From Candidatus Margulisiibacteriota bacterium (GTDB lineage Bacteria > Margulisbacteria > WOR-1 > O2-12-FULL-45-9 > XYB2-FULL-48-7), in the NCBI GenBank assembly GCA_041665245.1, contig JBAYJF010000001.1, positions 1-46,855 of the forward strand: a stretch of DNA of 46,855 nt, read 5' to 3'. The position numbers and the translations under genes were made by a program. Below, piece after piece: positions 1-40,045 of this stretch (position 1 is its first letter; the number at the start of each line of letters is the position of its first letter). The notes below the pieces were generated by a model. That model saw only the letters and a list, made by a program, of their open reading frames with translations, was not told the DNA's origin and did not search any database.

Positions 1-46
1 AAATGACAAATTAAAAATGACAATTGCTAAAAAAAATAGTTTTATA

Positions 47-1339
47 TTAAGTGATTTTGCCATTTTGGGCAACAATTTTTCCGGCTACGATCGTAGTCAT
101 CACTTTGCCGGCAAGCTTCCATCCGGCAAATGGGGTGTTCCTGCTTTTTGAAGCAAATTTTGTAGGATCAACCGTCCATTCTGCGCTTGGATCAAAGATA
201 CAAAGATCCGCATCCGCACCGATCTTCAAAGTCCCCTTGTTTTTTAGCCCCAATATTTTTGCTGGATTATTCGAAAGCTTTGCGATGAGCTCGCCAAGGG
301 AAAGCTGTTTTGTTTTTACCAGTTTTGTTACGGCTAGTCCAAGCGCTGTTTCAAGTCCGACCATTCCACTGGATGCCAGATTAAATTCCACATTTTTTTC
401 TTCAATGTTATGCGGTGCATGGTCGGTGGCAATAACATCGATCGTCCCGTCCTTTAATCCTCGGATAACAGCCTTCAGGTCTTTTTCTGTCTTGAGCGGC
501 GGGTTAACTTTTGCATTGGTATCATAATTTCTGATCGCTTCTTCGGTTATTGAAAAATAATGCGGGCAAGTCTCGCAGGTTACCGGGATATTGTCTTTTT
601 TTGCCTGGCGCAGCAATTTAATCGAGCCTTCGGATGAAACATGCGCTATATGCACCCTTCCAAATTCCCTGGCCAGCATAATTTCCCGCGCGACCATGAT
701 CTCTTCGGAAATTGCCGGGATCGGAGGAAGGCCTATCGAAGTTGAAACAACTCCTTCGTTCGCGGATCCGCCTTTTGAAAGGCTGGTATCTTCGCAGTGC
801 GAAATGACCGTGACGCCAAATTGTTTTGCATATTCAACCGCCCGGCGCATAATGTCGGCGCGCATTACCGGATGCCCGTCATCCGAGAAAGCGATGGCCC
901 CATCTCTGAAACATTCGCCCATTTCAGAGATTTCTTCGCCTTTTAATCCTTTGGTGATCGCGGCGATCGGAAAAATATTTACGACCGCTTCCGTTTTGGC
1001 TTTTCCAAGAATATATTCAATGACCGCACCGTTGTCCGCGATCGGATCGGTATTCGCCATACAGCAGATCGACGTAAAACCGCCAAGGGCCGCGGCACGT
1101 GAGCCACTATAGATCGTTTCTTTGTCGGGCCGGCCGGGATCGCGCAAATGCGTGTGCATATCGATAAATCCGGAAGTTACGGCCAAGCCTTTCGCGTCAA
1201 TTACTTTATAATTTTTCGAAGCCGGGATCTTTTTCGCGATCTTTGCTATTTTACCGTTCACGATAAGGATGTCATAGTTCCCATCCATTTTTGTTGATGG
1301 ATCGACCACTTTTCCGTTTTTAATCAGCAATGAACTCAT
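47..1339 (-). CDS. pyrC: dihydroorotase
   Basis: The 430-aa ORF has amidohydrolase signatures (GFIDMHTHLRDPG and VIATDHAPH). Its length is typical of the DHOase family. Confidence 0.9.
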   Translation of the reverse strand: MSSLLIKNGKVVDPSTKMDGNYDILIVNGKIAKIAKKIPASKNYKVIDAKGLAVTSGFIDMHTHLRDPGRPDKETIYSGSRAAALGGFTSICCMANTDPIADNGAVIEYILGKAKTEAVVNIFPIAAITKGLKGEEISEMGECFRDGAIAFSDDGHPVMRADIMRRAVEYAKQFGVTVISHCEDTSLSKGGSANEGVVSTSIGLPPIPAISEEIMVAREIMLAREFGRVHIAHVSSEGSIKLLRQAKKDNIPVTCETCPHYFSITEEAIRNYDTNAKVNPPLKTEKDLKAVIRGLKDGTIDVIATDHAPHNIEEKNVEFNLASSGMVGLETALGLAVTKLVKTKQLSLGELIAKLSNNPAKILGLKNKGTLKIGADADLCIFDPSAEWTVDPTKFASKSRNTPFAGWKLAGKVMTTIVAGKIVAQNGKIT

Positions 1340-2143
1340 TTAAAATTTCATCCTCTTTTTTACATTTGAAATAATTTCTCTTATCCCGCTGACTCCCTTT
1401 TTATCACTTTCTTTGCCGCTTGTCGAACTATGTTTTTCGGGAGCCTTGATCACTTTAAGCGCAACGGTCGCGGCTCTTTGTTCGGCTTCTTTTTTATTGG
1501 CTCCCCGCCCGATCCCGTATCTTTTCCCTTTTATTTTAACCTCGACCCAAAAAACCCGCCTGTGCTCCGGCCCGGTCTCTTTAATGACCTTATAACGGGG
1601 TAATTCCCATTTCTTTTTTTGTACATATTCCTGCAAAGCCGACTTATAATCTCCGATATAGCCAGCTTGAGATACAAGTTCGATTTCGTCATTTAAGTTC
1701 CCGATTATCAGGTCCCTTACCTTCCCGAGTCCCGCATCCAGAAACACCGCTCCGATCAAAGCTTCGAAGGCATTGGCAACATTTGATTTTCTCTTCCGTC
1801 CGCCGCTTTTCTTCTCGTTCTGGCTAAGAAGAATAACCTCGCCCAGCCCCATTTTTTTGCCGATATTCCCCAGCGTTTCGTCGGAGATCACCGAGGCCCT
1901 TATTTTCGTAAGCGCTCCCTCGGCTAACTGGGGGAATTTATTATATATATATTCGGTAACAATGAGCTTCAAAACGGCATCGCCCAGGAATTCCATCCGC
2001 TCATTGTCCGGCAAGTTATTCTCGTGGCCGGAGGAGCTATGCGTCAGCGCCTGGTTGAGAAGGGTAATATTTTGAAAAGATATATTGAGATTTTGCTGGA
2101 GGGTTTCGAGCTCTTTTTCTCTCTCGGAGGAAAGCTGTATCAT
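1340..2143 (-). CDS. rnc: ribonuclease III
   Basis: It carries the RNase III signature (ERMEFLGDAVLKL) and a C-terminal dsRBD-like region (GPEHRRVFWVEV...GANKKEAEQRAA). A Lys/Ser-rich C-terminal tail of about 35 aa follows. Confidence 0.9.
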   Translation of the reverse strand: MIQLSSEREKELETLQQNLNISFQNITLLNQALTHSSSGHENNLPDNERMEFLGDAVLKLIVTEYIYNKFPQLAEGALTKIRASVISDETLGNIGKKMGLGEVILLSQNEKKSGGRKRKSNVANAFEALIGAVFLDAGLGKVRDLIIGNLNDEIELVSQAGYIGDYKSALQEYVQKKKWELPRYKVIKETGPEHRRVFWVEVKIKGKRYGIGRGANKKEAEQRAATVALKVIKAPEKHSSTSGKESDKKGVSGIREIISNVKKRMKF

Positions 2144-2171
2144 TGACTTTATATTTTACATTATATACAAT
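2143..2171 (+). promoter_or_regulatory. sigma-70-like promoter TTGACT-N17-TACAAT for the 2210-4377 operon
   Basis: TTGACT lies at 2143-2148 and TACAAT at 2166-2171, exactly 17 nt apart. They sit about 38 nt upstream of the ATG at 2210, which has a GAGGT Shine-Dalgarno (SD) sequence. Confidence 0.5.
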
Positions 2172-2209
2172 GAAAGTTCAAGGATCACGGGCATTATAGA
2201 GGTAAAATT

Positions 2210-3121
2210 ATGTCAGTACTTTCTCCGATCATGAGCTTTATCGTCGACAAGGAGGTCGGGTTCCCGATCCCTTCAGAAAAAGAAAAGGTCAATAAAGCTC
2301 TAAAGCGCTATCGCCAGATATATAAAGAGCATCCCAACCGCTCCGATATCGGCGAGATAATGTTCGGGATCGCCGACCTTTTGGTCGGTCGAAATGACCC
2401 CGGAGACTATGCCGAAGCGACCAAGACCTATGACCAGATCCTGCTTAAAAATCCTCCGGAATACCTGAAAGCCAGGGCGCTCATTGGGAAAGCCGAGCTA
2501 TTGATCGGGACCCCGGCAGAATTCGCAAATGCGATCACGCTTTGTGAAAAAGCAAGACAGATCCTGGGAAAAGACCTGTCGGATTTTTTCAGCGCAAAAA
2601 GCTTTGTCATTGAGGCTGAACTTCTTTTGGCCCGCCGGGAAAAGGGTGATTGGGCAAAAGCCGTCGAACTCATCAATCAAATTATCAAAGAAAAGAACGC
2701 CCATTGGTACTTCAGGGGCCGAGCTCTTTTATCAAAAGCTGAAATATTGTTTTACCGCGAACCGGGAGACCTTGGGACCGCCATTAAGCTTTCCGATCAG
2801 GCAATTAGAGAATTAAAATCCCGTCCGGACGATTATTTCTCTTGTAAAGGGAAAATATTAAGGGGCGAAATGCTTATCCGCCGGGAAAAAAGAGGCGATT
2901 TTGAAAAAGCGGAAAAAATTCTCTCTGAGGTCCTTAAATCCAAGTTCAATTATTCGGATTTGATCGCCAGAGCAAAACTCGACCTGGCGGATATCGTCTC
3001 CAACCCGAAAGCCGGAAAACTATTGCAGGAAGTCTCCGAGATGGAAGGGCTTGACCCTTATCTGGCCGAAAAAGCAAAACTGGTTTCAGAACATATTAAA
3101 GAAAGGCCGCGCAGAAAATAG
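2210..3121 (+). CDS. hypothetical protein, all-helical with TPR-like repeats
   Basis: The 303-aa ORF repeats a roughly 40-aa pattern (...A.LGKAELL..., ...RALLSKAEILF..., ...KGKILRGEMLI..., ARAKLDLADIV). Its stop lies 2 nt before the leuC start, so the two are probably co-transcribed. Confidence 0.5.
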   Translation: MSVLSPIMSFIVDKEVGFPIPSEKEKVNKALKRYRQIYKEHPNRSDIGEIMFGIADLLVGRNDPGDYAEATKTYDQILLKNPPEYLKARALIGKAELLIGTPAEFANAITLCEKARQILGKDLSDFFSAKSFVIEAELLLARREKGDWAKAVELINQIIKEKNAHWYFRGRALLSKAEILFYREPGDLGTAIKLSDQAIRELKSRPDDYFSCKGKILRGEMLIRREKRGDFEKAEKILSEVLKSKFNYSDLIARAKLDLADIVSNPKAGKLLQEVSEMEGLDPYLAEKAKLVSEHIKERPRRK

Positions 3122-3123
3122 CC

Positions 3124-4377
3124 ATGGGAAAGACTATCGCTGAAAAGATCCTCTCAAACCACTGCGGCCGCGATGCAAAGGCTGGCGATATCGTTATTGC
3201 CGATCTTGATTTTATGATCGGCCAGGACGGAACCTCCGGCGTAGCGATCGATTCCTTTCGTAAAATGGCCGCACCCAAAGTTGCCGATCCAAACAAAATT
3301 GCCATTATTATCGATCACAGCTCCCCTTCCCCAAATTCGGGCGTATCCGCGATCCACAAAAAGATCCGCGAATTCACGACCGAGCAAGGGATCAAACTCT
3401 ATGATATCGGCTGCGGCGTTTGCCACCAGCTCACTCCAGAGCAAGGCCATGTGGTTCCGGGAGATCTAGTGATCGGGGCCGACTCGCATACCTGTACTTA
3501 TGGCGCGATCAATGTATTTTCAACCGGAATTGGTTCGACCGACCTTGCCGCCGGAATGATCTCTGGAAAGCTCTGGTTCAAAGTTCCGGAAACGATCAAA
3601 ATAAATTTTAACGGATCGCTTCCTAAAGGAATTTTCTCAAAAGATTTGATCCTGGCCCTTATTGGAAAGATCGGCGCCGACGGTGCGACATACTTAGCGC
3701 TGGAGATCGGCGGACAAGCAATTGATGAGATGTCGGTCGATGCCCGCTTCACCATCTCGAACATGGCAATTGAGTGCGGCGCCAAAGCCGGCCTTATGCC
3801 AGCGGATAGTAAAGTTATGGAGTGGGTAAAGAAACATTCCAATAAAAAACCGAATCCTGTTCAAGCCGATAAAGATGCTATTTATAAGCAAGTAATTGAC
3901 ATTGATGTAACAAAACTAGAGCCGCAGATCGCCAAACCTCATACGGTAGACAATGTTGTTCCTCTTTCGCAAATTGGCAAAGTTTCCATTCAACAGGGAT
4001 TAATTGGAACTTGTACAAACGGGCGGCTGGAAGACTTTCAGATCGCGGCAAAGATCTTAAAAGGAAAAAAAGTTAATCAGAATTGCCGGTTGATCATTGC
4101 GCCTTCATCAAAACAAATTCTTATGGATATGATCAAAGATGGAACCTATCAGACGTTGCTTGAAGCTGGCGCGGTTGCCGTTACTCCTGGGTGTGGACCA
4201 TGCGTTGGCACGCACAACGGCGTTCCTTCCGACGGGGAAAATGTGATCTCAACTGCGAACAGAAACTTCAAGGGAAGAATGGGGAACGTTAATTCGTTTA
4301 TCTACTTAGGTTCGCCGGCTACCGTAGCAGCATCGATGCTGGAAGCCAAGATCGCTGATCCGAGGAAGTATTTGTAG
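3124..4377 (+). CDS. leuC: 3-isopropylmalate (or homoaconitate) dehydratase large subunit, short aconitase-family type
   Basis: The 417-aa ORF has aconitase-family motifs (GADSHTCTYGA, GTCTNGR, PGCGPCVG, NRNFKGRMG). Confidence 0.85.
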   Translation: MGKTIAEKILSNHCGRDAKAGDIVIADLDFMIGQDGTSGVAIDSFRKMAAPKVADPNKIAIIIDHSSPSPNSGVSAIHKKIREFTTEQGIKLYDIGCGVCHQLTPEQGHVVPGDLVIGADSHTCTYGAINVFSTGIGSTDLAAGMISGKLWFKVPETIKINFNGSLPKGIFSKDLILALIGKIGADGATYLALEIGGQAIDEMSVDARFTISNMAIECGAKAGLMPADSKVMEWVKKHSNKKPNPVQADKDAIYKQVIDIDVTKLEPQIAKPHTVDNVVPLSQIGKVSIQQGLIGTCTNGRLEDFQIAAKILKGKKVNQNCRLIIAPSSKQILMDMIKDGTYQTLLEAGAVAVTPGCGPCVGTHNGVPSDGENVISTANRNFKGRMGNVNSFIYLGSPATVAASMLEAKIADPRKYL

Positions 4378-4385
4378 ATACTATG

Positions 4386-4410
4386 TTGATATCGCAAATT
4401 GCGATATCAA
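4386..4410. repeat. perfect 12+1+12 palindrome TTGATATCGCAA-A-TTGCGATATCAA between convergent leuC and the 364-aa ORF
   Basis: Read directly from the sequence. The arms are exact reverse complements. It could be a bidirectional terminator stem or a binding site for a dimeric protein. No T-run follows it. Confidence 0.6.
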
Positions 4411-4461
4411 GATTTGCAACCGGTGACAAATTGGCCCTGGTTCAATTATTTTCTAATTTAA

Positions 4462-5556
4462 CTATTCGCCGTATACTTTTGCCTTTAATATAAGAACATT
4501 TTGCCTCGGGAAAAACTTTCGCACAGTCCACCTCTCCCCCCTGGAAAAAACCACCGTTTTCGAAAAAAAGTCATATTCTCTCCAAAACATAAAATCGGTA
4601 TCCCCAAATATCCTTACTAAGGCAAGTCTAACCGCCTCTTCCTCATTAACGTTCCCTATTGCGTAATAACTTCTGCTACTTGAATAATCATATTGCTTAT
4701 ATACATTCATCCCTTTTGCTAATCCAAGGTTAATAAGCTCAAGCCTTAGCGCCGTTTCTTTGTCTCCCGGAAATACTTCTGAATTGATAGAGACTATTCC
4801 TTTTTGCTCTTGATTGTTTTGTGCGTCTCGAATAAACATGCGCGTAATGAAACGTGATGCAAGGGTCAAAAGAATTCCTCCTCCGACAATTCCTAACAAA
4901 GGAGCAACAGTAGTTATCACAGCCGTTGCCCACAAGCACGCTGGCACAGCCACAGTACTTACCAACGATAAAAGCATAAAACCTGCTCCAAATTTATGCC
5001 CAAAGCTAAGTTTAAATGGCGGGATTTCTAATTTTGATTTTTCTGGAGCAACAACTGAGCTTTTTGGTGCGACGGCTGCAGCCAGTTCCGCTGGGACGAC
5101 TCTGCCTGCGCTTGCTGTTTGCGGACTTTTTGCGCTTCGTACTGGTTCGCCCTTTTGCTCACCTTTACCAAATTTACCTTCTTTCTTTTTTGCTTTAACT
5201 CCAAAATTCCCTTCTAGCTTAACCTTCCCCGCCAATGCCGGCCTTGCCGCAATGGCCGCCGCAAGATCTTCGCTTGTAAGGACGATCCCAACTAAAGCAC
5301 TTATCAATTCTCTGGCCGCTAAATCATCTGCCGGTCTGGAATCCCCTTCAATTCTAATTTGAGTGATCCCGATATTATGTAAAATTCCCAACCGTACACC
5401 TTTTTTCTCTTCCACTCCTTTGCTGCAATCTACTGTTCCCCGAAAACCGGCTAAGCCGCGCCCGATCCTATCCTGCGCCTGCAAAACCTGTTTTTTCCCT
5501 AAGTCGGCATTCCTTCTTATCCCTCTTGTTGTTACCGTTATCTGCACTCCAGCCAT
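4462..5556 (-). CDS. hypothetical membrane protein (orphan) with a central bilobed hydrophobic domain
   Basis: The 364-aa ORF has a strong SD (AAGGAGGA) 6 nt before the ATG. Residues about 189-237 form two adjacent hydrophobic helices (FGAGFMLLSLVSTVAVPACLWA / VAPLLGIVGGGILLTLASRFI). A Lys/Gly-rich linker spans residues about 111-145. I recognise no family motif. Confidence 0.6.
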   Translation of the reverse strand: MAGVQITVTTRGIRRNADLGKKQVLQAQDRIGRGLAGFRGTVDCSKGVEEKKGVRLGILHNIGITQIRIEGDSRPADDLAARELISALVGIVLTSEDLAAAIAARPALAGKVKLEGNFGVKAKKKEGKFGKGEQKGEPVRSAKSPQTASAGRVVPAELAAAVAPKSSVVAPEKSKLEIPPFKLSFGHKFGAGFMLLSLVSTVAVPACLWATAVITTVAPLLGIVGGGILLTLASRFITRMFIRDAQNNQEQKGIVSINSEVFPGDKETALRLELINLGLAKGMNVYKQYDYSSSRSYYAIGNVNEEEAVRLALVRIFGDTDFMFWREYDFFSKTVVFSRGERWTVRKFFPRQNVLILKAKVYGE

Positions 5557-5579
5557 TTCAAATCCTCCTTAATTAACAA

Positions 5580-5604
5580 AAACCCAGATTATTCATCTGG
5601 GTTT
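5580..5604 (-). terminator. terminator-like hairpin between the 887-aa and 364-aa ORFs, inside the predicted leader of the 364-aa ORF
   Basis: The minus strand reads AAACCCAGAT-GAATA-ATCTGGGTTT followed by TTG. That gives a 10-bp stem, a 5-nt loop and a U-tract. Confidence 0.55.
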
Positions 5605-5622
5605 AAACTAACCTCATAGCTT

Positions 5623-5652
5623 TTTATCTGTACATCCTAGGATAAATTTCAC
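5623..5652 (-). promoter_or_regulatory. GTGAAATT-N16-GATAAA promoter-like motif (sigma-28-like geometry) upstream of the 364-aa ORF
   Basis: On the minus strand, GTGAAATT occupies 5652-5645 and overlaps the TGA stop of the 887-aa ORF. After a 16-nt spacer, GATAAA occupies 5628-5623. The same architecture occurs at four other sites. Confidence 0.55.
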
Positions 5653-8312
5653 CCTTTCGGCCGCAGGGAATACCCTTCAGCGAGCAACTCCGCAACGGAA
5701 ATAAAGTCCGGCCGACGATAGGTTTCTTCCACATCAAATATTTCCACCCGTTGCGTAAAATCTCCCGCCCGCATTAATGTTTCATATCTTCCACGAACCC
5801 CCTTCTTGGTCGAACGCAATAACGCTTCCGGGTCGCGATATTTCCCTTTCGCTAGTGCGGCGCTTACTTCATCAACCAAAACTGTTCCTTCTCTGCCGAC
5901 AGAAAGAAGATCGTGCTGAGAATTTCTAAAATGAACCGGCAAAACATGTTCGCTCCCATCAGAAAAAGTTGTAATTATATAAATTCCATAACGAATAGAT
6001 AGTTCGCGCTGGTCACCCAGCATTGTTTTTTGGATCTGCGCTTTATTCGAGTGGTGACAGCCTGCTAACATTCGGCTCCCATCACCCATTAAAATCGGCT
6101 TAACCGGCAATCTGCAAAGCCTTCCTCTATATTGCCTTGCAGCAAATATTTCTTCTCGGGCGATCCCGCTTATTGATCTTTCTCTTTCCGTTATGTTTCC
6201 GGGCAGCTCCAGCGGGCCAAAATATCCCTTTTCCAGCCTAAAAAGCGGCAACCCCAAGATCCCCTTTGTTCGCAGAACATGGTCAAAACCTCTTACGAAA
6301 AGCTCAGCTGCAGTAAGGCCGGGCTTCCCGGTCTCTATTGGGCTTAATAATTCCGTACCACCATCTTGAGGCATAATAAGATAACCGGAATATCTTTGTG
6401 TTACTACTTTTGTACACAGGTACCGAGCTAATACGCCGGCAGTTAATTCAACCAACGCCTCCTCAAAAACACCTAGCGCTAATTCGTCCTCTCGAATCCC
6501 TTTTGTATCGATAATTTTTACGGCTGCTTTGTCTAGATCCACTAATAAATGGATCTCTTTTCCCGTAAACGTACCTTCCTCTGCCAGAGAGGCCGCAACT
6601 TCAAAAGTTTGGCTCTTTAAATGCCGAACAGTTATTGATCGGAGCGATCCGCGTAAAAAATCCCCACCGGCAAGCTGATATTTCACTGTGGTTTCAGCTA
6701 ACATGGAAGGAGCAAATAATAGATCGACCGTTTCCATAGACTTATGACGACGCTCCGAAATTTGATCGGCCACCGCCATTAAACCCTCTTCCGCACCCCG
6801 AACTAAATTCAAAAAGTAGCGAATGAATTCGACATTTAAATTTTCAACTTCGCGCCTTGCAAGCTCCAAAGCAAATTGATCGACCTGTTTATCAACTTCG
6901 CCCAATACTACTGCAGGCGATTTAACGGCTAACCCGCCTACCTTTCCGGCCAATCCAAAAGCAAGAGCCGATAATCCGCACAAAAGAAAATATCTTGATA
7001 ATAATATTTTATTTCCCTCAAATTTAGGAGGGTAAAGCTGCAGGTGTTTTATCGGCAACTCATAAAGCAGATACCCGTCTGCCCTTTTAATCGCGACTAA
7101 CATTGAAGCCGTATTTGGCCGACTGAAAATATTTACACGACCAGCCTCTGCCGAATGCTTGGCACTAAATTCAGCTGCATGCAAAAAACAGGCCGAACCG
7201 CTCAACCCCGCCTTTAGAAATACCCGATTGAGGGCTTCCACCGATTCTTTTATCTGTCGATCAAGAATAAGGGCTATCCGGGGGGCATCATCGGCAGACA
7301 ACCGCAAAACCGGCCCGCATTCGGTCAAGGAGGCCAAAGACAACCCGCTTTCATAAAACCGGCAAATTGCATCAAGAAAGGAAATGCGCAAAATTTCTAT
7401 TTCGGTATCAATTACTGTCGGCGCGCTCGCCGTTCTTTTATTTCCATTTCCCTCCAAGTGAGGCGCGACACCCTCTAAAACACCCTTTGCCGCATTTCTA
7501 TCCCCTTTCGCCGATAATTGCTCAAATTCTCGATAACTCCTTTGCATTGACAGCAGCCTTGCTGCTTTTTCATCAAGGGCAGCTCCCAAAATAAATCTAT
7601 CCAGAAGATCTAAAAATTCAAAGTGCGCCAGGCCGACAATTTTTGTATGAAAACATTCCTGGTCATCAGCAAAATTCCCTTTGTTTTCAACGACCAATTC
7701 TGCACACACCCTCATTTTTCCACGATCAAAAGTTGCCCCTCTCATTCTTTCATTTGCTCTGCCGCGAAACAGGACCTCTTCGGCAACTAAGCGCCTGCAC
7801 TCTAGATCAATGGACGTCAAACAAGCAATATCGCTGCCTAAGTCTATTAGCCTATTTGGAAAAGTTTTAAGCAGGCGGCTGCCAATAACAAAAACGCCGA
7901 TAAAATATCTCAAATCTCTATTGCCGGCAGGAGGAAAAGGTTTTACCTTTATAAACTCCTCATACCGACTCCTTATGGCTCTTCCGGTTTCCGGGCTAGC
8001 ATGCAAGGTTCTCTGAAGAGCATTTGCGGCATTTTGAAAATTATCGCTATCTGGCGCATCTCTTTCAATAACATACATGTAATGGTCCGCCGCAAAAGCG
8101 TGATTAGATTTCTTACGTGCAAGATCTGCCAAGGCAACATAACAACTATAAATTTCAGACGGCGCAACTTGCCCGGATCTTTCGATCTGCACAAGCAAAT
8201 TCTTAGCAACATGTAGATTTCCCGCGCGATGTGCTGTAGAAAAATCCGTCATTGTTGGCATTTTTTGTTGCCGAACCTCTCTTTTTCCCCACCGTACTCC
8301 ACTTGGTTTCAT
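5649..8312 (-). CDS. large hypothetical protein (orphan, 887 aa)
   Basis: This is a long uninterrupted ORF on the strand opposite the flanking leuC and leuD. I see no catalytic or nucleotide-binding motif. The composition looks richer in Ala/Arg/Leu/Gly than the neighbouring genes. The start is uncertain: the ATG at 8312 has no SD, and alternative ATGs lie at 8261 and 8252. Confidence 0.6.
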   Translation of the reverse strand: MKPSGVRWGKREVRQQKMPTMTDFSTAHRAGNLHVAKNLLVQIERSGQVAPSEIYSCYVALADLARKKSNHAFAADHYMYVIERDAPDSDNFQNAANALQRTLHASPETGRAIRSRYEEFIKVKPFPPAGNRDLRYFIGVFVIGSRLLKTFPNRLIDLGSDIACLTSIDLECRRLVAEEVLFRGRANERMRGATFDRGKMRVCAELVVENKGNFADDQECFHTKIVGLAHFEFLDLLDRFILGAALDEKAARLLSMQRSYREFEQLSAKGDRNAAKGVLEGVAPHLEGNGNKRTASAPTVIDTEIEILRISFLDAICRFYESGLSLASLTECGPVLRLSADDAPRIALILDRQIKESVEALNRVFLKAGLSGSACFLHAAEFSAKHSAEAGRVNIFSRPNTASMLVAIKRADGYLLYELPIKHLQLYPPKFEGNKILLSRYFLLCGLSALAFGLAGKVGGLAVKSPAVVLGEVDKQVDQFALELARREVENLNVEFIRYFLNLVRGAEEGLMAVADQISERRHKSMETVDLLFAPSMLAETTVKYQLAGGDFLRGSLRSITVRHLKSQTFEVAASLAEEGTFTGKEIHLLVDLDKAAVKIIDTKGIREDELALGVFEEALVELTAGVLARYLCTKVVTQRYSGYLIMPQDGGTELLSPIETGKPGLTAAELFVRGFDHVLRTKGILGLPLFRLEKGYFGPLELPGNITERERSISGIAREEIFAARQYRGRLCRLPVKPILMGDGSRMLAGCHHSNKAQIQKTMLGDQRELSIRYGIYIITTFSDGSEHVLPVHFRNSQHDLLSVGREGTVLVDEVSAALAKGKYRDPEALLRSTKKGVRGRYETLMRAGDFTQRVEIFDVEETYRRPDFISVAELLAEGYSLRPKG

Positions 8313-8317
8313 ATCCT

Positions 8318-8350
8318 AATATCATCGTCAATAGATCGGATTAATTTCAC
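8318..8350 (-). promoter_or_regulatory. GTGAAATT-N16-GATGAT(ATT) promoter-like motif upstream of the 887-aa ORF
   Basis: On the minus strand, GTGAAATT occupies 8350-8343. GATGAT follows at 8326-8321 (16-nt spacing), with an alternative GATATT at 8323-8318. Only 5-8 nt remain before the ATG at 8312, so the gene may be leaderless. Confidence 0.45.
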
Positions 8351-8366
8351 AGAATATGGCAAATCA

Positions 8367-8374
8367 TGTATAAT
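8367..8374 (+). promoter_or_regulatory. -10 box TGTATAAT placed 7 nt upstream of the leuD ATG (leaderless-type arrangement)
   Basis: TATAAT lies at 8369-8374 and the ATG at 8382. There is no SD between them. Confidence 0.45.
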
Positions 8375-8381
8375 AAATATC

Positions 8382-8885
8382 ATGAACCTAAACGGAAAAG
8401 CACGCCGGCTGCCTCAAAATGATGATATAAATACCGATTACGTCATCTCGGGACGCTATAAGTTCAAGATCCAGGACCCGGTTGAACTGGCGACCCATGT
8501 CATGGAAGACCTGGATCCCGGCTTTTTCAAAAGAGTTGAAAAAGGGGATTTTATGGTCGTTGGCCGCAATTTTGGCTGTGGATCATCGCGCGAACAAGCC
8601 CCGATGGCGATCAAATATGCCAATATTTCCGCGATCCTGGCCAAATCTTTTGCCCGCATCTTTTATCGCAATTGTTTCAACCTAGGGCTCTTAGCGATCG
8701 AATGCGACACTGACGGGATTGACGAAGGCGACCAGCTCGAAGTTGACCTGGACGGCGGCAAGATCATAAATAAAACAAAAAAGACGGAGATCAAGGTAGC
8801 GCCGCTTCCCAAAACTATGCAAACCCTTTTGGCCGACGGGGGGCTGATCGAACATTTCAAAAAGCATCATGGATTCAAAGTTTAG
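8382..8885 (+). CDS. leuD: 3-isopropylmalate dehydratase small subunit
   Basis: The protein from Met52 of the ORF track (MNLNGKARRL...) is 167 aa. It carries the small-subunit motif GRNFGCGSSREQAP. The 51 upstream codons of the ORF overlap the opposite-strand 887-aa gene and are not credible. Confidence 0.85.
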   Translation: MNLNGKARRLPQNDDINTDYVISGRYKFKIQDPVELATHVMEDLDPGFFKRVEKGDFMVVGRNFGCGSSREQAPMAIKYANISAILAKSFARIFYRNCFNLGLLAIECDTDGIDEGDQLEVDLDGGKIINKTKKTEIKVAPLPKTMQTLLADGGLIEHFKKHHGFKV

Positions 8886-9627
8886 CATCCGCGGTTTCAT
8901 TGAGACCTCTTTCCTCGACTGGGACGGAAAAATAACCTCGGTCATCTTTCTCCCCAACTGCAACCTAAACTGTTCCTATTGCAGCAATAGCGTTCTGGTC
9001 AATTATCCTGAAACCCTGCGAGAAATCGATTTTGAGCATATTAAAAGCTTCATTGTTGAGAGAAAAGATTTTATCGATGGGATCGTAATAACAGGAGGAG
9101 AGCCGACCATCCAACCGTGGCTTATCGACTTAATAAAAGAAATAAAAGCGCTCGGTTTTCTGATCAAACTCGATACAAACGGCATTAACCCCAAAGTCCT
9201 CTCCCAGCTCCTAAGCCCTGCCTGCCGGCAGGCAGGTCCGAACTCCGAACTCCCAACTCCCAACTCCCGACTTGTTGATTATATAGCTATGGATGTTAAA
9301 GCCCCGCTAAATGAAAAATACAAAGAAGTCTGCGGAACAGATGTAGACCTGAATGCCATACGGGAAAGCATTAAACTGCTGATAAATTCCGGGATCGAAC
9401 ATGAATTCAGGACAACCGTTGTTGCGGGCAGCCTGGATAATGAAGATATTAAAGAGATCGCAAAAAGCATTGTCGGAGCAAAAAAGTTTGCGCTCCAGCA
9501 ATTTGTTCCCCGGATCGCCGGGGATGAAAAGTTAAGAGAAACCATCCCCCACTCAAAAGAGAAACTGCAAGAAATGGCTAAAATCGCCAAGGAATATATC
9601 CCTAACACCATTGTGCGGGGGATCTGA
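8869..9627 (+). CDS. radical SAM activating enzyme (anaerobic ribonucleotide reductase activase-like)
   Basis: The N-terminal SFLDWDGKITSVIFLPNCNLNCSYCSN contains the CxxxCxxC cluster motif. GGEPT is also present. The ORF overlaps the leuD end by 17 nt. It carries an in-frame palindrome plus heptamer insertion at 9217-9270. Confidence 0.75.
   Translation: MDSKFSIRGFIETSFLDWDGKITSVIFLPNCNLNCSYCSNSVLVNYPETLREIDFEHIKSFIVERKDFIDGIVITGGEPTIQPWLIDLIKEIKALGFLIKLDTNGINPKVLSQLLSPACRQAGPNSELPTPNSRLVDYIAMDVKAPLNEKYKEVCGTDVDLNAIRESIKLLINSGIEHEFRTTVVAGSLDNEDIKEIAKSIVGAKKFALQQFVPRIAGDEKLRETIPHSKEKLQEMAKIAKEYIPNTIVRGI
9217..9236. repeat. copy 1 of the perfect 20-bp palindrome CCTGCCTGCCGGCAGGCAGG, inside a CDS
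   Basis: Exact 20-mer, identical to the copies at 25064-25083 and 29527-29546. Here it is translated in frame as PACRQAG. Confidence 0.9.
9238..9270. repeat. heptamer stutter block (CCGAACT x2, CCCAACT x2, CCCGA) abutting the palindrome
   Basis: Read directly from the sequence. It is translated in frame as PNSELPTPNSR within the radical SAM ORF. Confidence 0.8.
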
Positions 9628-9674
9628 CGCGGCCCTCACCCGGTTTATCATTAAAGTATACTTGACGTTAGCTG

Positions 9675-9750
9675 CCCTCTCCCAGGGGGAGAGGGAATGT
9701 TTGGTTAATTGTTTGTAACACGATACAACCCTTCTCCCTCTGGGAGAAGG
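9675..9750. repeat. two REP-like GC-rich hairpins in the 183-bp spacer
   Basis: Hairpin 1 is CCCTCTCCC-agg-GGGAGAGGG (9675-9695). Hairpin 2 is CCTTCTCCC-tct-GGGAGAAGG (9730-9750). Both have 9-bp stems and the two sequences are related. Confidence 0.7.
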
Positions 9751-25061: not shown

Positions 25062-25085
25062 AACCTGCCTGCCGGCAGGCAGGTT
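25062..25085. repeat. copy 2 of the palindrome (24 bp here: AA-CCTGCCTGCCGGCAGGCAGG-TT), upstream of tRNA-Glu
   Basis: The exact 20-mer lies at 25064-25083. It is flanked by AAATGACAA-like stutter words, which also occur at 1-9 and 15-23. Confidence 0.9.
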
Positions 25086-28377: not shown

Positions 28378-29463
28378 CTAGACATTAAAGCGGATGACAA
28401 TTATATCGCCATCCTGGACAACGTAGCTTTTACCTTCGGTGTGGAGAAGCCCGCGTTCTCTGGCTTTGGCGTATGAAGCGCAGGCGATCATGTCCGGATA
28501 ATGGATAACTTCGGCGGCGATGAAACCTTTTTCCATATCCGAGTGGATCTTCCCCGCCGCCTCCGGCGCGGTCATCCCTTTTTGGATCGTCCAGGCGTGA
28601 GATTCTTTTTCACCGGCGGTAAAAAAAGTAATTAAATTTAAAAGTTCGTAGCCGGAATGGATCAGCCGATTTAGCGTTGATTCTTTTATTCCCATTTCGG
28701 TTAAATAAGCCTTTGCGTCTTCGTCCGATAATTCTGCGATCTCTGACTCGAGCTTCGATGATATTGCTATGACCTTTGAACCTTCTTTTTTTGCGATCTC
28801 TTCTACGATCGCAACTTCAGCGGCGCTGCCGGTCTCGTCCACATTGGCAACATACAAAACCGGTTTAGAGGTTAAAAGCATATAGCCCTTGATCGCCAGC
28901 TTCTCTTCCTCCGTGAGAGGAATACTTCGGACCGGAACCCCTTTTTCAAGCCCGTCTTTGAGCTTTTGCAAAACTTCGAATTCTTTAAGCAAGGCTTTGT
29001 CGCCCGAGCGGGCTTTGGGCCTTGTGGCATCGAGCCGTTTTTCTACCTGGACAAGGTCGGCAAGGTTAAGTTCAAGGTTTATCGTTTCAATATCACTTTT
29101 CGGATCAACTTTTCCGGCGACATGAATGATCTCATCGCTTTGAAAACAACGGACAACGTGGGCGATGGCATCGACTTCGCGAATGTGGGACAAAAATTTA
29201 TTACCGAGCCCCTCGCCTTTTGCGGCTCCCTTTACTAGCCCAGCGATATCGTAGAACTCAATATAAGTTGGAACGGTTTTTTTAGAAGAAAATAATTTTG
29301 TTAGTTCAAGCAATCTTTCGTCGGGGACTTCCACGGTTCCAATGTTGGGGTCGATCGTGCAAAAGGGATAGTTGGAAACGTTCGCCTTCGCCCGCGAGAG
29401 GGCGTTGAAAAGGCTTGATTTTCCTACGTTTGGCAGGCCTACGATCCCAAGTGATAGTCCCAT
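28378..29463 (-). CDS. ychF: ribosome-binding ATPase YchF
   Basis: The N-terminus [17 protein letters not shown], the DIAGLVKGA motif and a C-terminal TGS-like domain are present. A TATAAT box lies 9 nt upstream of the ATG on the minus strand (29478-29473). Confidence 0.9.
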
Positions 29464-29487: not shown

Positions 29488-29517
29488 GTGAAATTTTCAT
29501 AATTTGAAACTGATATT
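29488..29517 (+). promoter_or_regulatory. GTGAAATT-N16-GATATT promoter-like motif upstream of the 523-aa ORF
   Basis: GTGAAATT lies at 29488-29495 and GATATT at 29512-29517. A structured leader of about 85 nt follows. Confidence 0.55.
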
Positions 29518-29526
29518 AATGTAGGG

Positions 29527-29546
29527 CCTGCCTGCCGGCAGGCAGG
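29527..29546. repeat. copy 3 of the 20-bp palindrome, in the leader of the 523-aa ORF
   Basis: Exact 20-mer CCTGCCTGCCGGCAGGCAGG. Confidence 0.9.
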
Positions 29547-29565
29547 CAAGGGCTCGTCCCTTGCC
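29545..29565 (+). other. second GC-rich leader hairpin GGCAAGGG-ctcgt-CCCTTGCC followed by a T-rich tract
   Basis: It has an 8-bp stem and a 5-nt loop. GGCTTATTTC lies downstream. It shares two bases with the palindrome. Confidence 0.6.
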
Positions 29566-29603
29566 GGCTTATTTCAAGATTAAAAACGAAAGGGGAAATT
29601 AAA

Positions 29604-31175
29604 ATGAGCAGCATTTCAGGAACGGCCCCGGTTATCAGAAAAGTTACCATCAGAGGAACAGACCAGATCGGCGCAAGAAGGAGAATGACCGATCAGGCCG
29701 CAAAAGAATATTTAGGAAGCAAAAGATACGGGGTATTAAAGACCGATGTTGCCAGAGTAATTCGGGGAACAGACAGCTGGAAAGCTTTTTTTATAAATCC
29801 TCTCGATGAAGTGCTTTTCCCTAAAGAAAACATCGACTCACTAATAAGTGTAGCCGGCTTAGATGTTCAGACTGAATCCGCCTTTAGGGCGTTGATCAAA
29901 CAAGATCATCCTGGAGCAATAGTAGAAACGACTGATGGACGACTTGTTGCTCTTCGTTTGGATGATTTTGAAGGGGTTGCGCTAACCCCGACCATTGACC
30001 CCACAAGCAACATGCAAACTTTTGTTTCAGGCCCCGTGCTAGAAAGAGCTGAAAGAAGGCTATCAGAAATCATTGGGACAGAGGAAACAAATCCAGGCAG
30101 GGTCACCGTTGCACATAACGCTTTGCCAAATTGGGATACAATTAGATTTGCGTTAACCCCAACAGATTCCATGGTAATAACTCAGGCAGCAGCCGGTGAG
30201 CCCTGGCCCGCATTTAAAGTGGTTCCTTTTCAACATTTAAAAATATCCCTTTCAGCTTCGGCTTTGAATTATGGGCAGCAACTATTTGAGGGAATGAAGG
30301 CTCAGAGGACCAAGGATGGAAGGGTTGTTCTCTTTAGGCCGCTTGATAACGCCAGAAGAATGAAAGGCGGCGCGGAAAGGATCCTCTTAAATCCTGTTCC
30401 GGAAGAATATTTCCTTGCAGCCGTAACCGCCGCCGTCCGAGCAAATGAACGCTGGATCCCGCCATATGGCAAGGGAGCGCTATACATAAGACCGGTCCTA
30501 ATTGGTGATGGGGGAGTTGTTGGTATAAATCCTGGGCCGCAAGATACCTTTGGTATTCTTTGTACTCCGGTTGGGCCATATTTCCAGGGAGGAATGAAAG
30601 CCATTTCATTGCTTGTTCCGGAAGATTATCATCGCTCTGCCCCTGGGAATCTGGGTTATATTAAGGCCGGCGGGAACTATACCGCAGGAATGATGCTTGC
30701 CCGGGATGCGCATGCCGCGGGTTTTGCCGAAATTCTATATCTTGATGCGATTAAGAATTTGTATCCTGATGAGGTTGGGGCCGCGAATTTCATCCTTGTT
30801 TATAAACACAAAAACGGGGATCGCACTATTTTTACCCCGCCTCTTGAGAATGGAACCATTTTACCGGGGGTCACAAGAAGAAGTTGGATCCAAATAGCAA
30901 GAGACGCCGGGATCGAGGTTATTGAAAAGATCCCCACCATTAACAGAATTATGAAGGACGAAAGATTTGTTGAAGCCGGCTGCTCGGGAACGGCGGCGGT
31001 TATCTCCCCTATTGGTAAAATCCAATATAAAGGCGCAACAAGAGAATTTGGAGATGGATTAACTCCGGGCTCTGTCATGCGAATGCTTCATGGTAGATTA
31101 ACAGCGATTCAATTGCTGGAAGCTCCAGATATCTATGGCTGGGTACATGAAGTCAATATGCGATCCATAGCTTAG
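29604..31175 (+). CDS. branched-chain amino acid aminotransferase (fold-type IV) fused to an unknown ~175-aa N-terminal region
   Basis: From about residue 180 the protein is collinear with long-form BCATs (FALTPTDSMV, LNYGQQLFEGMKA, LFRP..N..R, YIRP, and the PLP lysine context GYIKAGGNYTAG). Residues 1-175 have no motif I recognise. An AAGGGG SD is present. Confidence 0.75.
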   Translation: MSSISGTAPVIRKVTIRGTDQIGARRRMTDQAAKEYLGSKRYGVLKTDVARVIRGTDSWKAFFINPLDEVLFPKENIDSLISVAGLDVQTESAFRALIKQDHPGAIVETTDGRLVALRLDDFEGVALTPTIDPTSNMQTFVSGPVLERAERRLSEIIGTEETNPGRVTVAHNALPNWDTIRFALTPTDSMVITQAAAGEPWPAFKVVPFQHLKISLSASALNYGQQLFEGMKAQRTKDGRVVLFRPLDNARRMKGGAERILLNPVPEEYFLAAVTAAVRANERWIPPYGKGALYIRPVLIGDGGVVGINPGPQDTFGILCTPVGPYFQGGMKAISLLVPEDYHRSAPGNLGYIKAGGNYTAGMMLARDAHAAGFAEILYLDAIKNLYPDEVGAANFILVYKHKNGDRTIFTPPLENGTILPGVTRRSWIQIARDAGIEVIEKIPTINRIMKDERFVEAGCSGTAAVISPIGKIQYKGATREFGDGLTPGSVMRMLHGRLTAIQLLEAPDIYGWVHEVNMRSIA

Positions 31176-31193
31176 CTATTTTTATTGCTTTGT

Positions 31194-31227
31194 AAAAAGG
31201 CCCGGGGGACGTTCTTCGGGCCTTTTT
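31194..31227 (+). terminator. rho-independent terminator after the 523-aa ORF
   Basis: The sequence is AAAAAGGCCCG-(12 nt)-CGGGCCTTTTT. The T-tract abuts the next GTGAAATT box. Confidence 0.7.
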
Positions 31228-31228
31228 A

Positions 31229-31258
31229 GTGAAATTTTTCATTTTACCTTCCGATAAC
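31229..31258 (+). promoter_or_regulatory. GTGAAATT-N16-(CC)GATAAC promoter-like motif, 7 nt upstream of the ATG of the 722-aa ORF (leaderless arrangement)
   Basis: GTGAAATT lies at 31229-31236, CCGATAAC at 31251-31258 and the ATG at 31266. There is no SD. Confidence 0.6.
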
Positions 31259-31265
31259 TATTCGT

Positions 31266-33434
31266 ATGAATAGAACAAGCCCAGCGCCTGCAACAGGGCG
31301 ACCACAAAGACCAAGAAGAACGGCCCCAACTGTTCAATATCAGCTTATTTGTCACAACCTCCCCTTGTCACCAAGACAGGCCGGCCGTGTTATCGAGGCC
31401 CTAACACAAACTGGGCGCAATGGTGGGCTGGAAAGTCTGCGCGCAACGGAAATTGTAGCTTTTAAAGCCGCCGGAGGGAACGACGCCGACCTGCAAGTTC
31501 CAGGCGAATGCCGAGGAAAACTCCTTAATCTACTTGAAGGACAGGAAAGAGCAGTATATATATCATTTTTGCTCCGTTTTGCGGCCGCGCATATGGTCGC
31601 CGAACAATATAGCGACGCAAGAGACACTTATGGCGCAATATTAATACCCTGCCGAGACAACGTTCCCGCCAAAATTGGGCAAAAAGCCGCTATAATTGCA
31701 AAATCGCTTTTACCGGCTGCAAAGCCGATCTTGGCTCTCTTTTCCGCATATACCGAAACCCTCGCCTCGCCAGAAGGCCTGGACTGGAAAGAGGCGGCTT
31801 TCAATGCAGCAATATCCGCAATCGTAGAATCATCCGCAAACCCTCAAATAGACGGGGAAACTTTATTTATAAAACTGGCCCCTCTTTTCAATTTTCCTGA
31901 ATCGGCTCCGGCAGAAGTAAATTCGGCTGCCGATTTCTATTGCAAAGCCGTCAGCTTAACTCTTCGCGGATTGCTGGATGCAAGCGTTCCGGCAACCGCA
32001 ATCGTTCACGCCTTCGGAAGACCAATTATCGAAGAACTTGAAATGGCGCTGGCATCAGACGGCAATGAACACGTTTTATTTCCGCTCCGCCTATCTCTTA
32101 TGATCGCGGTTCTTCTTCATGAAAAGAGCCTTCCTTTCGATAAAATTGAAGAAGCCATTCGTCCTTTTGGCGAACCGGTTGTTCAGGCTGCATTGGAATC
32201 CGAGATATTTTTTCTTGCCGGCGCAAAAATACGCACAGGGATCGAGATGGCGCCTCCACGAATTGAAGTTGTCCCCCTCCCGCTCGATGCCGCAGAAGCC
32301 GCAGTTGGCCTTGTTTTAGATCTCGCCGCCGGAACAAGGGATATCAAAGAAAATCCCCGTACAACAGCACAAGAATTTTATGCTCTTTACCTACAAGCAG
32401 AAGAAGTCCATAAGGAAGAAATTGGCGCAACACTAGCAGAAACGGCGGTTACATGTGCAAACGAACAGCCCGAAAAAATAAAAGAACTCATCTTATTCTT
32501 AAACACTCTTTTAGATAAACATGACGAAAAATTAACCCCTCATTTAAATAGAGGGACGATCGCCATGCTCTTGTCTCCGTCCATAAAAAGAAAGCTTGTT
32601 GCTTCTGCATCTGAACTATGGCAAAAGGTTAAAATCGCGGGAGAAAAAGCCGGGCAGGAACTGCTCGCGCTACCACCTTCCATCCCTAAATCAGCGTCAA
32701 AGGGAATTCGCACGCAAAAGAGCACCGCCCCGCAAATCCCTATCGCCGAAGAATATTTAGCCTTAGAAGGAATTTCTGCTGATGACATCCTTTTTATTGA
32801 TTTTTTCTTCACCCGCTTCGCTACTTTTCCGATCGTCCAGGCAATGTTTGGGGAAATAGAGGCAACTATTTTTTGTGATCCATATTCTACAACCGACCGC
32901 TTTTATGCAACGATCCTCCATACATCAAAAGGGAGCGAAAAAGCGCTCCGCCAATTTGCAACGCTGCTAAAAAAAACCGACGGGCTTCCATACACAAGAA
33001 TTGAAGCAACGCTCAAACTAGCTGACAATAAATTGGTTGATCTGGCCTTTCAAGTCGCCCCTCCGTTGGCACCCATCATCACGCAAACCAACATTACTTT
33101 ATTTAGGATCCAATCTTTTTATGCCTGGGCTCACATTTTATCCAAAAGAATAGAAGCCTATATCCAAAAACCTCACGACTATAAGGCCACGGCACATTCA
33201 TTGATCTGCACTTTTAGTTTCTGCGCGGCAAAAGTTCCGATGCTGGCGGACAATATCCCAAAGAATCACCCTTTCTCATATTATGCCGGCCATGTAAAAG
33301 ATTTTGTGCTAACGCAAACATTACCCCGCTACGGAGAATTGATCAGAGGGGGAAACAGCGCCGTAAAAGCAGCAGTCGCTGCCGCAAAGGAGACCTTGTC
33401 GGCAGGCAAGGGTTTCACTCTCTATAAAGAATAA
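31266..33434 (+). CDS. large hypothetical protein (orphan, 722 aa), predicted mostly alpha-helical
   Basis: This is a long ORF with a Pro/Arg/Thr-rich N-terminus (MNRTSPAPATGRPQRPRRTAPT) and an Ala/Leu-rich body. I recognise no enzymatic motif. Confidence 0.6.
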   Translation: MNRTSPAPATGRPQRPRRTAPTVQYQLICHNLPLSPRQAGRVIEALTQTGRNGGLESLRATEIVAFKAAGGNDADLQVPGECRGKLLNLLEGQERAVYISFLLRFAAAHMVAEQYSDARDTYGAILIPCRDNVPAKIGQKAAIIAKSLLPAAKPILALFSAYTETLASPEGLDWKEAAFNAAISAIVESSANPQIDGETLFIKLAPLFNFPESAPAEVNSAADFYCKAVSLTLRGLLDASVPATAIVHAFGRPIIEELEMALASDGNEHVLFPLRLSLMIAVLLHEKSLPFDKIEEAIRPFGEPVVQAALESEIFFLAGAKIRTGIEMAPPRIEVVPLPLDAAEAAVGLVLDLAAGTRDIKENPRTTAQEFYALYLQAEEVHKEEIGATLAETAVTCANEQPEKIKELILFLNTLLDKHDEKLTPHLNRGTIAMLLSPSIKRKLVASASELWQKVKIAGEKAGQELLALPPSIPKSASKGIRTQKSTAPQIPIAEEYLALEGISADDILFIDFFFTRFATFPIVQAMFGEIEATIFCDPYSTTDRFYATILHTSKGSEKALRQFATLLKKTDGLPYTRIEATLKLADNKLVDLAFQVAPPLAPIITQTNITLFRIQSFYAWAHILSKRIEAYIQKPHDYKATAHSLICTFSFCAAKVPMLADNIPKNHPFSYYAGHVKDFVLTQTLPRYGELIRGGNSAVKAAVAAAKETLSAGKGFTLYKE

Positions 33435-40015: not shown

Positions 40016-40045
40016 CTTATCGGGCCGGCTTTTTCATAATTTCAC
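40016..40045 (-). promoter_or_regulatory. GTGAAATT-N16-(CCC)GATAAG promoter-like motif upstream of the GT5-like ORF
   Basis: On the minus strand, GTGAAATT occupies 40045-40038 and CCGATAAG occupies 40023-40016. Confidence 0.6.

Follow-up and report, generated by a model that had tools for sequence, protein, structure and literature searches.

A class II branched-chain aminotransferase of Saganbacteria with a class-specific N-terminal module and a conserved promoter box of sigma-28-like geometry

Introduction

Branched-chain aminotransferases (BCATs) are among the best-studied enzymes that depend on pyridoxal 5'-phosphate (PLP). The class II bacterial enzymes (IlvE) are represented by solved structures from S. 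mutans (4DQN), Pseudomonas sp. UW4 (6JIF), D. radiodurans (3UYY) and M. smegmatis (3DTF). Promoters of the sigma-28 type (FliA/SigD/WhiG) follow the consensus TAAA-N15-GCCGATAA. In the literature, we found nothing on N-terminally extended BCATs and no description of such an accessory domain on a BCAT, and we found nothing on flagella in Saganbacteria.

Here we analyze a gene for an N-terminally extended class II BCAT in an uncultivated groundwater bacterium of the Saganbacteria/WOR-1 (assembly GCA_041665245.1, 1.38 Mb). The gene lies in a stretch of 46,855 nt (contig JBAYJF010000001.1, positions 1 to 46,855 of the forward strand), which we call the window and to which all coordinates refer unless another contig or locus is named. 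An initial annotation, made from the DNA letters and their open reading frames (ORFs), had described a BCAT fused to an N-terminal region of ~175 residues, expressed from its own promoter, and had considered export, moonlighting or a non-standard substrate. We found that the catalytic motifs are intact, that the extension is translated, constrained and restricted to one class of the phylum, that the genome has a second IlvE, and that a promoter box is conserved upstream of the orthologues. We think it probable, with real room for doubt, that the gene encodes a class II BCAT that is active and is produced in an alternative-sigma programme, and that the accessory module, specific to the class, packs on the enzyme in a structural, oligomerisation or partner/regulatory role.

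Results

The catalytic body belongs to the class II BCAT family and its motifs are intact

The PLP lysine and the aminotransferase family that the initial annotation had recognized are borne out by profile searches and by a motif alignment. In Pfam, the full protein matches only Aminotran_4 (PF01063), which marks a PLP domain of fold type IV, over residues 226–473 and with 86.6 bits (cut-off 28.5), and it scores above the cut-offs of two NCBIfam equivalog models, NF009897 (343 bits, cut-off 307) and TIGR01123 (293.8 bits, cut-off 250.05). The NF009897 match pairs residues 170–517 with profile positions 13–357 of 358; because it begins only at residue 170, about 155–170 N-terminal residues have no counterpart in canonical enzymes. 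The unmatched region of the initial annotation is therefore real, and the length of ~175 residues given to it was close. As the protein has 523 aa, with residues 1 to ~157 outside the profile, as compared to ~340–370 aa in canonical enzymes, we class it as a family variant. The best PDB sequence matches are bacterial IlvE enzymes (4DQN, 6JIF, 3UYY and 3DTF, E = 1e-65 to 1e-69), which align only from residue 160–200 onward, and the catalytic body is 33–41% identical to solved BCAT structures. An AlphaFold2 model built on a 32-sequence alignment reached a predicted local distance difference test score (pLDDT) of 78.5 and a predicted template modelling score (pTM) of 0.77, and superposes on 3dtf, 4dqn and 6jif (Foldseek E ~1e-35, target TM-scores 0.84–0.92).

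For the catalytic motifs we aligned 32 sequences, 14 extended and 18 canonical. K354 (codon 30663–30665, within GYIKAGGNY at residues 351–359), R245, Y294, R296, Y326, Y359, E390, G462 and A464 are invariant across this alignment, and F228 and T463 are nearly so (at least 90%). The PLP and substrate motifs FEGxK, FRP, YxRP, GPYF, KxxGNY, EExGxxN, TILPGxTR and GTAA are all present. The PLP- and substrate-binding roles of the conserved residues are presumably those seen in the structures of hBCATm and E. coli IlvE, from which we mapped them. The present gene probably encodes a class II BCAT that is active, whose specificity may have drifted to some degree and whose substrates would be the usual branched-chain amino acids.

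The second ilvE that the initial annotation had proposed to look for is present: the genome also encodes a canonical type I IlvE (contig C49, 304 aa; TIGR01122, 332 bits as compared to a cut-off of 245.55), and a type I enzyme of ~300 aa was found in 10/10 other genomes checked that have an extended BCAT. That the extended BCAT is always a second paralogue beside type I IlvE would fit a changed job, in which the module forms a new substrate or partner site and the donors are methionine/4-methylthio-2-oxobutyrate (KMTB), 2-oxobutyrate, or a carrier-bound or peptide substrate. The long branch of the present copy and its substitutions at near-invariant positions would fit as well, and so would a divergent Cys/Met-type PLP enzyme that lies under the same promoter motif and has a 57%-identical orthologue 22 nt upstream of the extended BCAT in one other genome (G001). 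We nevertheless consider a changed job unlikely, because the catalytic and pocket motifs are all conserved with canonical class II BCATs, the scores lie above the equivalog cut-offs, the Cys/Met-type enzyme and the extended BCAT occur together in only two of the five genomes that have the former, and no other neighbour is conserved. The non-standard substrate that the initial annotation had entertained does not sit well with motifs that do not vary between extended and canonical members, even if this copy evolves fast.

In G001, which belongs to the same family, the two genes lie on the same strand at L026 (G001:C26) 6248–9080, and the upstream gene encodes a Cys/Met-metabolism PLP enzyme of 441 aa whose counterpart in our genome is the motif-driven gene on contig C30. 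A functional link between the BCAT and this enzyme was set aside as weak on the co-occurrence count; the adjacency and the shared promoter are a weak lead towards methionine or 2-oxobutyrate chemistry.

The extension is restricted to one class of the phylum

A profile built from the N-terminal region matches 11 of the 146 genomes of the phylum, all in the window's class; in three further genomes of this class, the class II BCAT also has a long frame, with an N-terminus that is more diverged. Of the 146 genomes, 34 have a class II BCAT that scores above the cut-off. The window's class holds 15 of them, 14 extended (open frames 445–551) and one canonical on a 2.5-kb contig, and in the other classes all 19 are canonical (open frames 313–427). 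The extension is a synapomorphy of the window's class, which the initial annotation had missed while naming phylogenetic spread as a thing to check. In a tree of the catalytic part, one branch divides the extended from the sampled canonical sequences with a Shimodaira–Hasegawa-like approximate likelihood ratio test (SH-aLRT) support of 97, and a root placed with the type I enzyme, which is very distant, cannot be relied on.

The gene order pyrH-frr-uppS-cdsA-nadC / BCAT / uvrD is shared by our genome, G005 and G143, the last of these from a different family of the class, and this shared position marks the BCAT gene as an old vertical resident. Unlike the nadC / BCAT / uvrD order of G005 and G143, the window has ychF (28378–29463) inserted between uvrD and the BCAT gene. 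A 722-aa orphan (31266–33434), with its own GTGAAATT-N15-CCGATAA promoter, is inserted between the BCAT gene and nadC.

The extension contains a conserved module found only on BCAT-like proteins

The extension consists of a conserved N-terminal strand segment, an insert and a conserved core (Table 1). In the full-length model, residues 11–20 have a mean pLDDT of 89, and residues ~40–100, within the insert, have values of 39–57. The insert is restricted to the present genome and its closest relative (P0122/L022) and is absent from other members; shorter or longer loops occur at the same place in those members, so we regard it as a loop of variable length that joins strands 1 and 2. The core carries the motif RLDDFxGVxLxPsLxPxxxxQTFVxGPVLERAERvL, at residues 117–153 here.

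The initial annotation had pointed to an internal repeat-like motif in this region (KVTIRGTDQIG, residues 13–23, and RVIRGTDSW, residues 51–59). The sole aligned repeat is IRGTD (GGAACAGAC in the DNA), and its local alignment score was reached in 89 of 2000 shuffles (p ~0.045), so we do not take it to show a duplication. Nor does it support the idea that the insert arose by internal duplication, as the shared part is only this pentapeptide. When we compared the module to the canonical BCAT profile with hhalign, only the 14-residue junction overlap IDWDxLxF was matched, so that no internal duplication of the BCAT fold can be detected in the module.

In a search of 1.84 billion representative proteins, a hidden Markov model (HMM) profile of the module gave 14 matches, and the credible ones are only N-termini of BCAT-like proteins (438–642 aa) or fragments of such genes. 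Matches to Ig_7 and PD40 repeat proteins (P0126, P0130, P0133) were rejected because their scores are summed over repeats. Three apparent stand-alone genes for the N-terminal module were also rejected: P0122 is a fragment at the end of a contig, P0129 a full-length gene with a frameshift, and P0121 lies on a 647-nt contig. A word-index search with residues 1–172 gave no match at E ≤ 0.01, a scan of metagenome contigs with the N-terminal protein found no relative, Pfam gave nothing for the N-terminal modules of 13 members even at E = 5, and a sequence profile of the module gave a single chance match in PDB (E = 0.35). The fold check that the initial annotation had proposed for the N-terminal region therefore ended with no Pfam, PDB-sequence or Foldseek match. 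Two extended relatives, P0127 (511 aa) and P0128 (523 aa), have ~60 further residues inserted in the catalytic domain, immediately ahead of the EVIYLD motif.

The module is compact, conserved and of beta/alpha composition, it sits at the N-terminus of a metabolic enzyme, and the gene would be expressed in an alternative-sigma programme; such a module could be a ligand-sensing domain through which amino acids or a nucleotide signal tune the enzyme allosterically, in the manner of ACT domains. We hold this to be improbable. The predicted order of elements is beta, long loop, beta-beta, beta, alpha, as compared to beta-alpha-beta-beta-alpha-beta in ACT domains; the module has no match in Pfam (at the threshold given above), in PDB sequences or by fold; and we recognized no conserved ligand-type motif.

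The orthologues share a promoter box in their upstream regions

The motif GTGAAATT-N14-18-GATAW, of which one copy lies upstream of the BCAT gene, occurs four times in the window, as compared to 0.08 expected, and 23 times in the whole genome; the other sites in the window are at 5624–5652, 31229–31257 and 40017–40045. In 12/12 orthologue upstream regions, we found exactly one (T/A)GAAATT, located 47–115 nt 5' of the ATG and followed by nGAtAa, and the spacer is 15 nt in 11 of these 12 boxes. The same (T/A)GAAATT box is seen upstream of a thirteenth orthologue (G024). By chance, TGAAATT is expected 0.028 times per 150 nt. The –10 elements of the orthologues are GGATAA, CGATAA, CGAAA or AGATAA. 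The conservation of the box upstream of orthologues is new as compared to the initial annotation, whose own observations, a promoter motif and a terminator belonging to the gene, were both confirmed. The conserved sigma-28-like geometry suggests that the enzyme is made in an alternative-sigma programme and not with the ilv/leu genes, and the strong terminator after the gene indicates that it is monocistronic; separate expression, as first proposed, agrees with both.

The box would be read by a FliA/WhiG-like sigma factor. The candidate is a 238-aa ORF on contig C31 whose best family is FliA_WhiG and which is kept at 59–82% identity in 57 genomes of the class. Its gene adjoins flgI (an NCBIfam match) inside a basal-body cluster (C31 about 1–9700, part of it in L019), and we take the remaining genes of the cluster, named by reading ORFs, to be fliI-fliH-fliF-fliE-flgC-flgB and flgH-flgA-flgG-flgF. 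A search with one Pfam model in six frames did not find Flagellin_N in our genome or in six relatives that are 91–98% complete. Possibly the cluster is the relic of a flagellum that has no filament, and the sigma-28-like regulon that belongs to it drives orphan genes.

The genes behind GTGAAATT-N15-CGATAA are mostly orphans or divergent enzymes, often with N-terminal extensions that have no match (examples are C30:5422–6756 and sites on C41, C74, C80, C93 and C108). Their products include Cys/Met-PLP-like (445 aa), GH77-like (561 aa), PGM-like (847 aa) and GT5-like (537 aa) proteins, a GGDEF protein of 521 aa and a protein of 818 aa that has a Shikimate_DH-like domain.

On a bolder reading, a lineage that retains a basal-body cluster and a FliA-like sigma factor, and in which no flagellin was detected, has repurposed its sigma-28-like regulon, with the extended BCAT among the conserved members; a module of new fold would tie the enzyme to this programme, either as an export or docking signal for the flagellar-type apparatus or as a gating sensor. 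We give this little credence. We find it still less probable that the N-terminal region is or contains a flagellar-type export signal and that the aminotransferase is secreted or moonlights. In Campylobacter and Yersinia, sigma-28-dependent non-flagellar proteins leave the cell via the flagellar apparatus, and export would be in keeping with the conserved promoter, with a sigma gene embedded in a flagellar cluster, with the missing Flagellin_N and with the unmatched N-terminal regions of other motif-driven genes. However, in the model the conserved N-terminal segment forms an ordered strand (pLDDT 89) within a folded module, unlike a disordered signal, nothing points to secretion, it is hard to see what a PLP enzyme would do outside the cell, and the flagellin absence comes from a single Pfam model and a six-frame search. 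By inspection and not by a predictor, residues 1–40 (MSSISGTAPVIRKVTIRGTDQIGARRRMTDQAAKEYLGSK) show no hydrophobic signal peptide core and no Tat-type motif. With residues 11–17 modelled as a strand, these observations do not favour the exported enzyme of the initial annotation.

The N-terminal extension is translated and under constraint

In a search of 5.8 billion proteins, the closest full-length relatives are proteins of 430–450 aa from Margulisbacteria metagenome-assembled genomes, and the N-terminus is aligned in them too. The long ATG start behind a good ribosome-binding site is kept in the orthologues of 14 genomes of the same class, and the orthologue N-termini all begin M..VxRVxVxG..xG. 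Among the in-frame internal ATG, GTG and TTG codons at residues 28 to 221, we found none with a usable ribosome-binding site. As compared to a 92%-identical relative from another sample (L022), the ratio of nonsynonymous to synonymous polymorphism (pN/pS) is 0.17 over codons 1–152 and 0.20 within the insert, and the conserved elements of the extension are modelled at pLDDT 82–92 in the full-length context. Taken together, the conserved start and ribosome-binding site, the low pN/pS and the confidently modelled conserved elements indicate that the extension is genuine and translated. An internal start with its own ribosome-binding site, which the initial annotation had raised as the mark of a mis-called gene, is not there, and the upstream part is conserved in homologues.

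The orthologue of a WOR-1 genome at L014 (G142:C56) 1501–2940, in the P0123 cluster, is recorded at NCBI (OGC19924.1, OGC10043.1) as 373 aa from an internal Met; in contrast, other gene callers give the same orthologue 480 aa with the conserved N-terminal module, and the extension is thus under-annotated in public databases. At L041 3001–4382, in a relative that has the same divergent ychF neighbour as the window, the N-terminal module and the BCAT body are called as two genes, and two GTGAAATT-type boxes lie upstream. The split is a frameshift in a poly-A run, from a sequencing error or in a pseudogene.

That the start is mis-called, the real protein being a BCAT of ~350 aa and the upstream 150–170 codons an untranslated leader or fused pseudogene, is very improbable: the 373-aa record and the two-gene call at L041 would fit it, but the latter is a frameshift, and protein-level conservation of the upstream part in 14 genomes, its start and ribosome-binding site, its pN/pS and the internal codons that lack such a site all speak for the long protein.

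Leader and other features of the locus

The leader of 87 nt folds into the two GC-rich hairpins that the initial annotation had described (–35.1 kcal/mol, z = –2.5). The first of them is not specific to this gene: it is a generic dispersed palindrome, a copy of CCTGCCTGCCGGCAGGCAGG, a 20-nt perfect GC-rich palindrome with 30 copies in the genome (18-nt core, at most one mismatch), three of them in the window (9218–9235, 25065–25082 and 29528–29545) and 27 on other contigs. Rfam gave no match in the leader. Contigs from three DNA sequencing runs were fragmentary, low-depth pieces that did not settle the leader. The coordinates of all features are given in Table 1.

Table 1. Features of the extended BCAT gene and its flanking regions in the window
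Feature	Coordinates	Strand	Basis or remark
Promoter-like bipartite motif: GTGAAATT (29488–29495), 15-nt spacer, TGATAT (29511–29516)	29488..29516	+	sigma-28-like geometry, degenerate –10
Leader hairpin 1, copy of the dispersed perfect palindrome CCTGCCTGCCGGCAGGCAGG, REP-like	29526..29547	+	genome-wide count
Leader hairpin 2, GGCAAGGG-CTCGT-CCCTTGCC then GGCTTATTTC; weak-terminator-like	29545..29565	+	folding
Shine-Dalgarno-like AAGGGGA, 7 nt 5' of the ATG	29590..29596	+	conserved in close relative L022
Coding sequence, N-terminally extended class II BCAT, 523 aa	29604..31175	+	ORF call, profiles, model
Conserved N-terminal strand segment, residues 9–23 (VIRKVTIRGTDQIG), first module element	29628..29672	+	strand 11–17, pLDDT 89
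Insert of ~70 residues, residues ~29–100, holds second IRGTD	29688..29903	+	predicted helical, low confidence
Conserved module core, residues 101–157: three strands and a helix	29904..30074	+	strands 104–109, 113–117, 137–140; helix 144–156; pLDDT 82–92
Class II BCAT catalytic body, residues 170–517	30111..31154	+	profile, alignment, model
Intrinsic terminator: 16-bp stem, 4-nt loop, U5 tail	31193..31228	+	–23.5 kcal/mol, z = –3.6

Discussion

On the reading we prefer, the gene would encode an active class II branched-chain amino-acid:2-oxoglutarate aminotransferase, the second paralogue in a genome whose housekeeping enzyme is the type I IlvE. Its N-terminal accessory module, with ~85–100 conserved residues, would have arisen once in the Margulisbacteria class that contains WOR-1/Saganbacteria, and is found on no other kind of protein. 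As modelled, the N-terminal strand and three strands further along form a small sheet, and the helix after them connects to the canonical BCAT N-terminus; the loop between strand 1 and strand 2, variable in length, has grown to ~70 residues in the present genome. The module could serve as an appendage that packs on the catalytic body, with a structural, oligomerisation or regulatory/partner-binding role. The gene would be transcribed alone, from a TGAAATT-N15-nGATAa promoter with the geometry of sigma-28 (FliA/WhiG) promoters.

Several observations weigh against this reading. The –10 element here is CTGATAT, in which only GATA matches sigma-28, as compared to CCGATAA at the other sites, and the C31 sigma factor reaches 139.4 bits, below the FliA_WhiG cut-off of 189.6. 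Only DNA runs, from groundwater and soil, hold the sequence, and no RNA run does. The genomic context offers no pathway link. The copy evolves fast, with a terminal branch of 1.44 substitutions per site in the catalytic-part tree and 18 positions that are at least 90% conserved elsewhere and differ here (for example K328Q, F459G, Y496H and P216L), and given the long branch and these deviations, the enzyme may have changed in specificity or activity. For an insert-free orthologue, the module modelled by itself reached a pLDDT of 72.5, and Foldseek found no fold match for the isolated module (best E = 1.1 in PDB and 0.54 in BFVD); the fold of the module and its packing on the catalytic body are predictions.

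The extended BCAT is genuine, and as a variant of a familiar enzyme its novelty is modest. A module of ~100 residues without relatives in sequence or fold has been fixed over a long time on the class II BCAT of one bacterial class. It is always accompanied by a normal IlvE and by the same promoter of alternative-sigma type, and this combination offers a concrete, testable case of a housekeeping enzyme recruited into a lineage-specific regulatory programme. The analysis also flags an annotation problem, as the extension is cut off in some public records. The practical value is modest: the module is a structure target for a possibly new small fold, and the gene may serve as a marker for the Saganbacteria sigma-28-like regulon.

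Comparison with known systems

Like repetitive extragenic palindromic (REP) elements, the palindrome in the first leader hairpin is GC-rich and dispersed; in contrast to them, CCTGCCTGCCGGCAGGCAGG is much shorter and is a perfect palindrome without a loop. The promoter motif resembles sigma-28 promoters in being bipartite, in the GAAA inside GTGAAATT, in the 15-nt spacer and in a (C)CGATAA-like –10 element; it differs from them in the –35 element, which here is an extended (G)TGAAATT, and the BCAT copy has CTGATAT in place of CCGATAA. The targets of this motif are orphans and divergent enzymes, not the flagellin or chemotaxis genes of sigma-28 regulons, and flagellin itself was not detected by the search described above. 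With the class II IlvE enzymes (TIGR01123/NF009897; 4DQN, 6JIF, 3UYY and 3DTF), the present protein shares the catalytic body, the PLP lysine and the motifs. In contrast to the solved and canonical enzymes, it adds ~155 N-terminal residues, made up of the strand, sheet and helix of the predicted module and an insert of ~70 residues, and it is always found as a paralogue beside type I IlvE.

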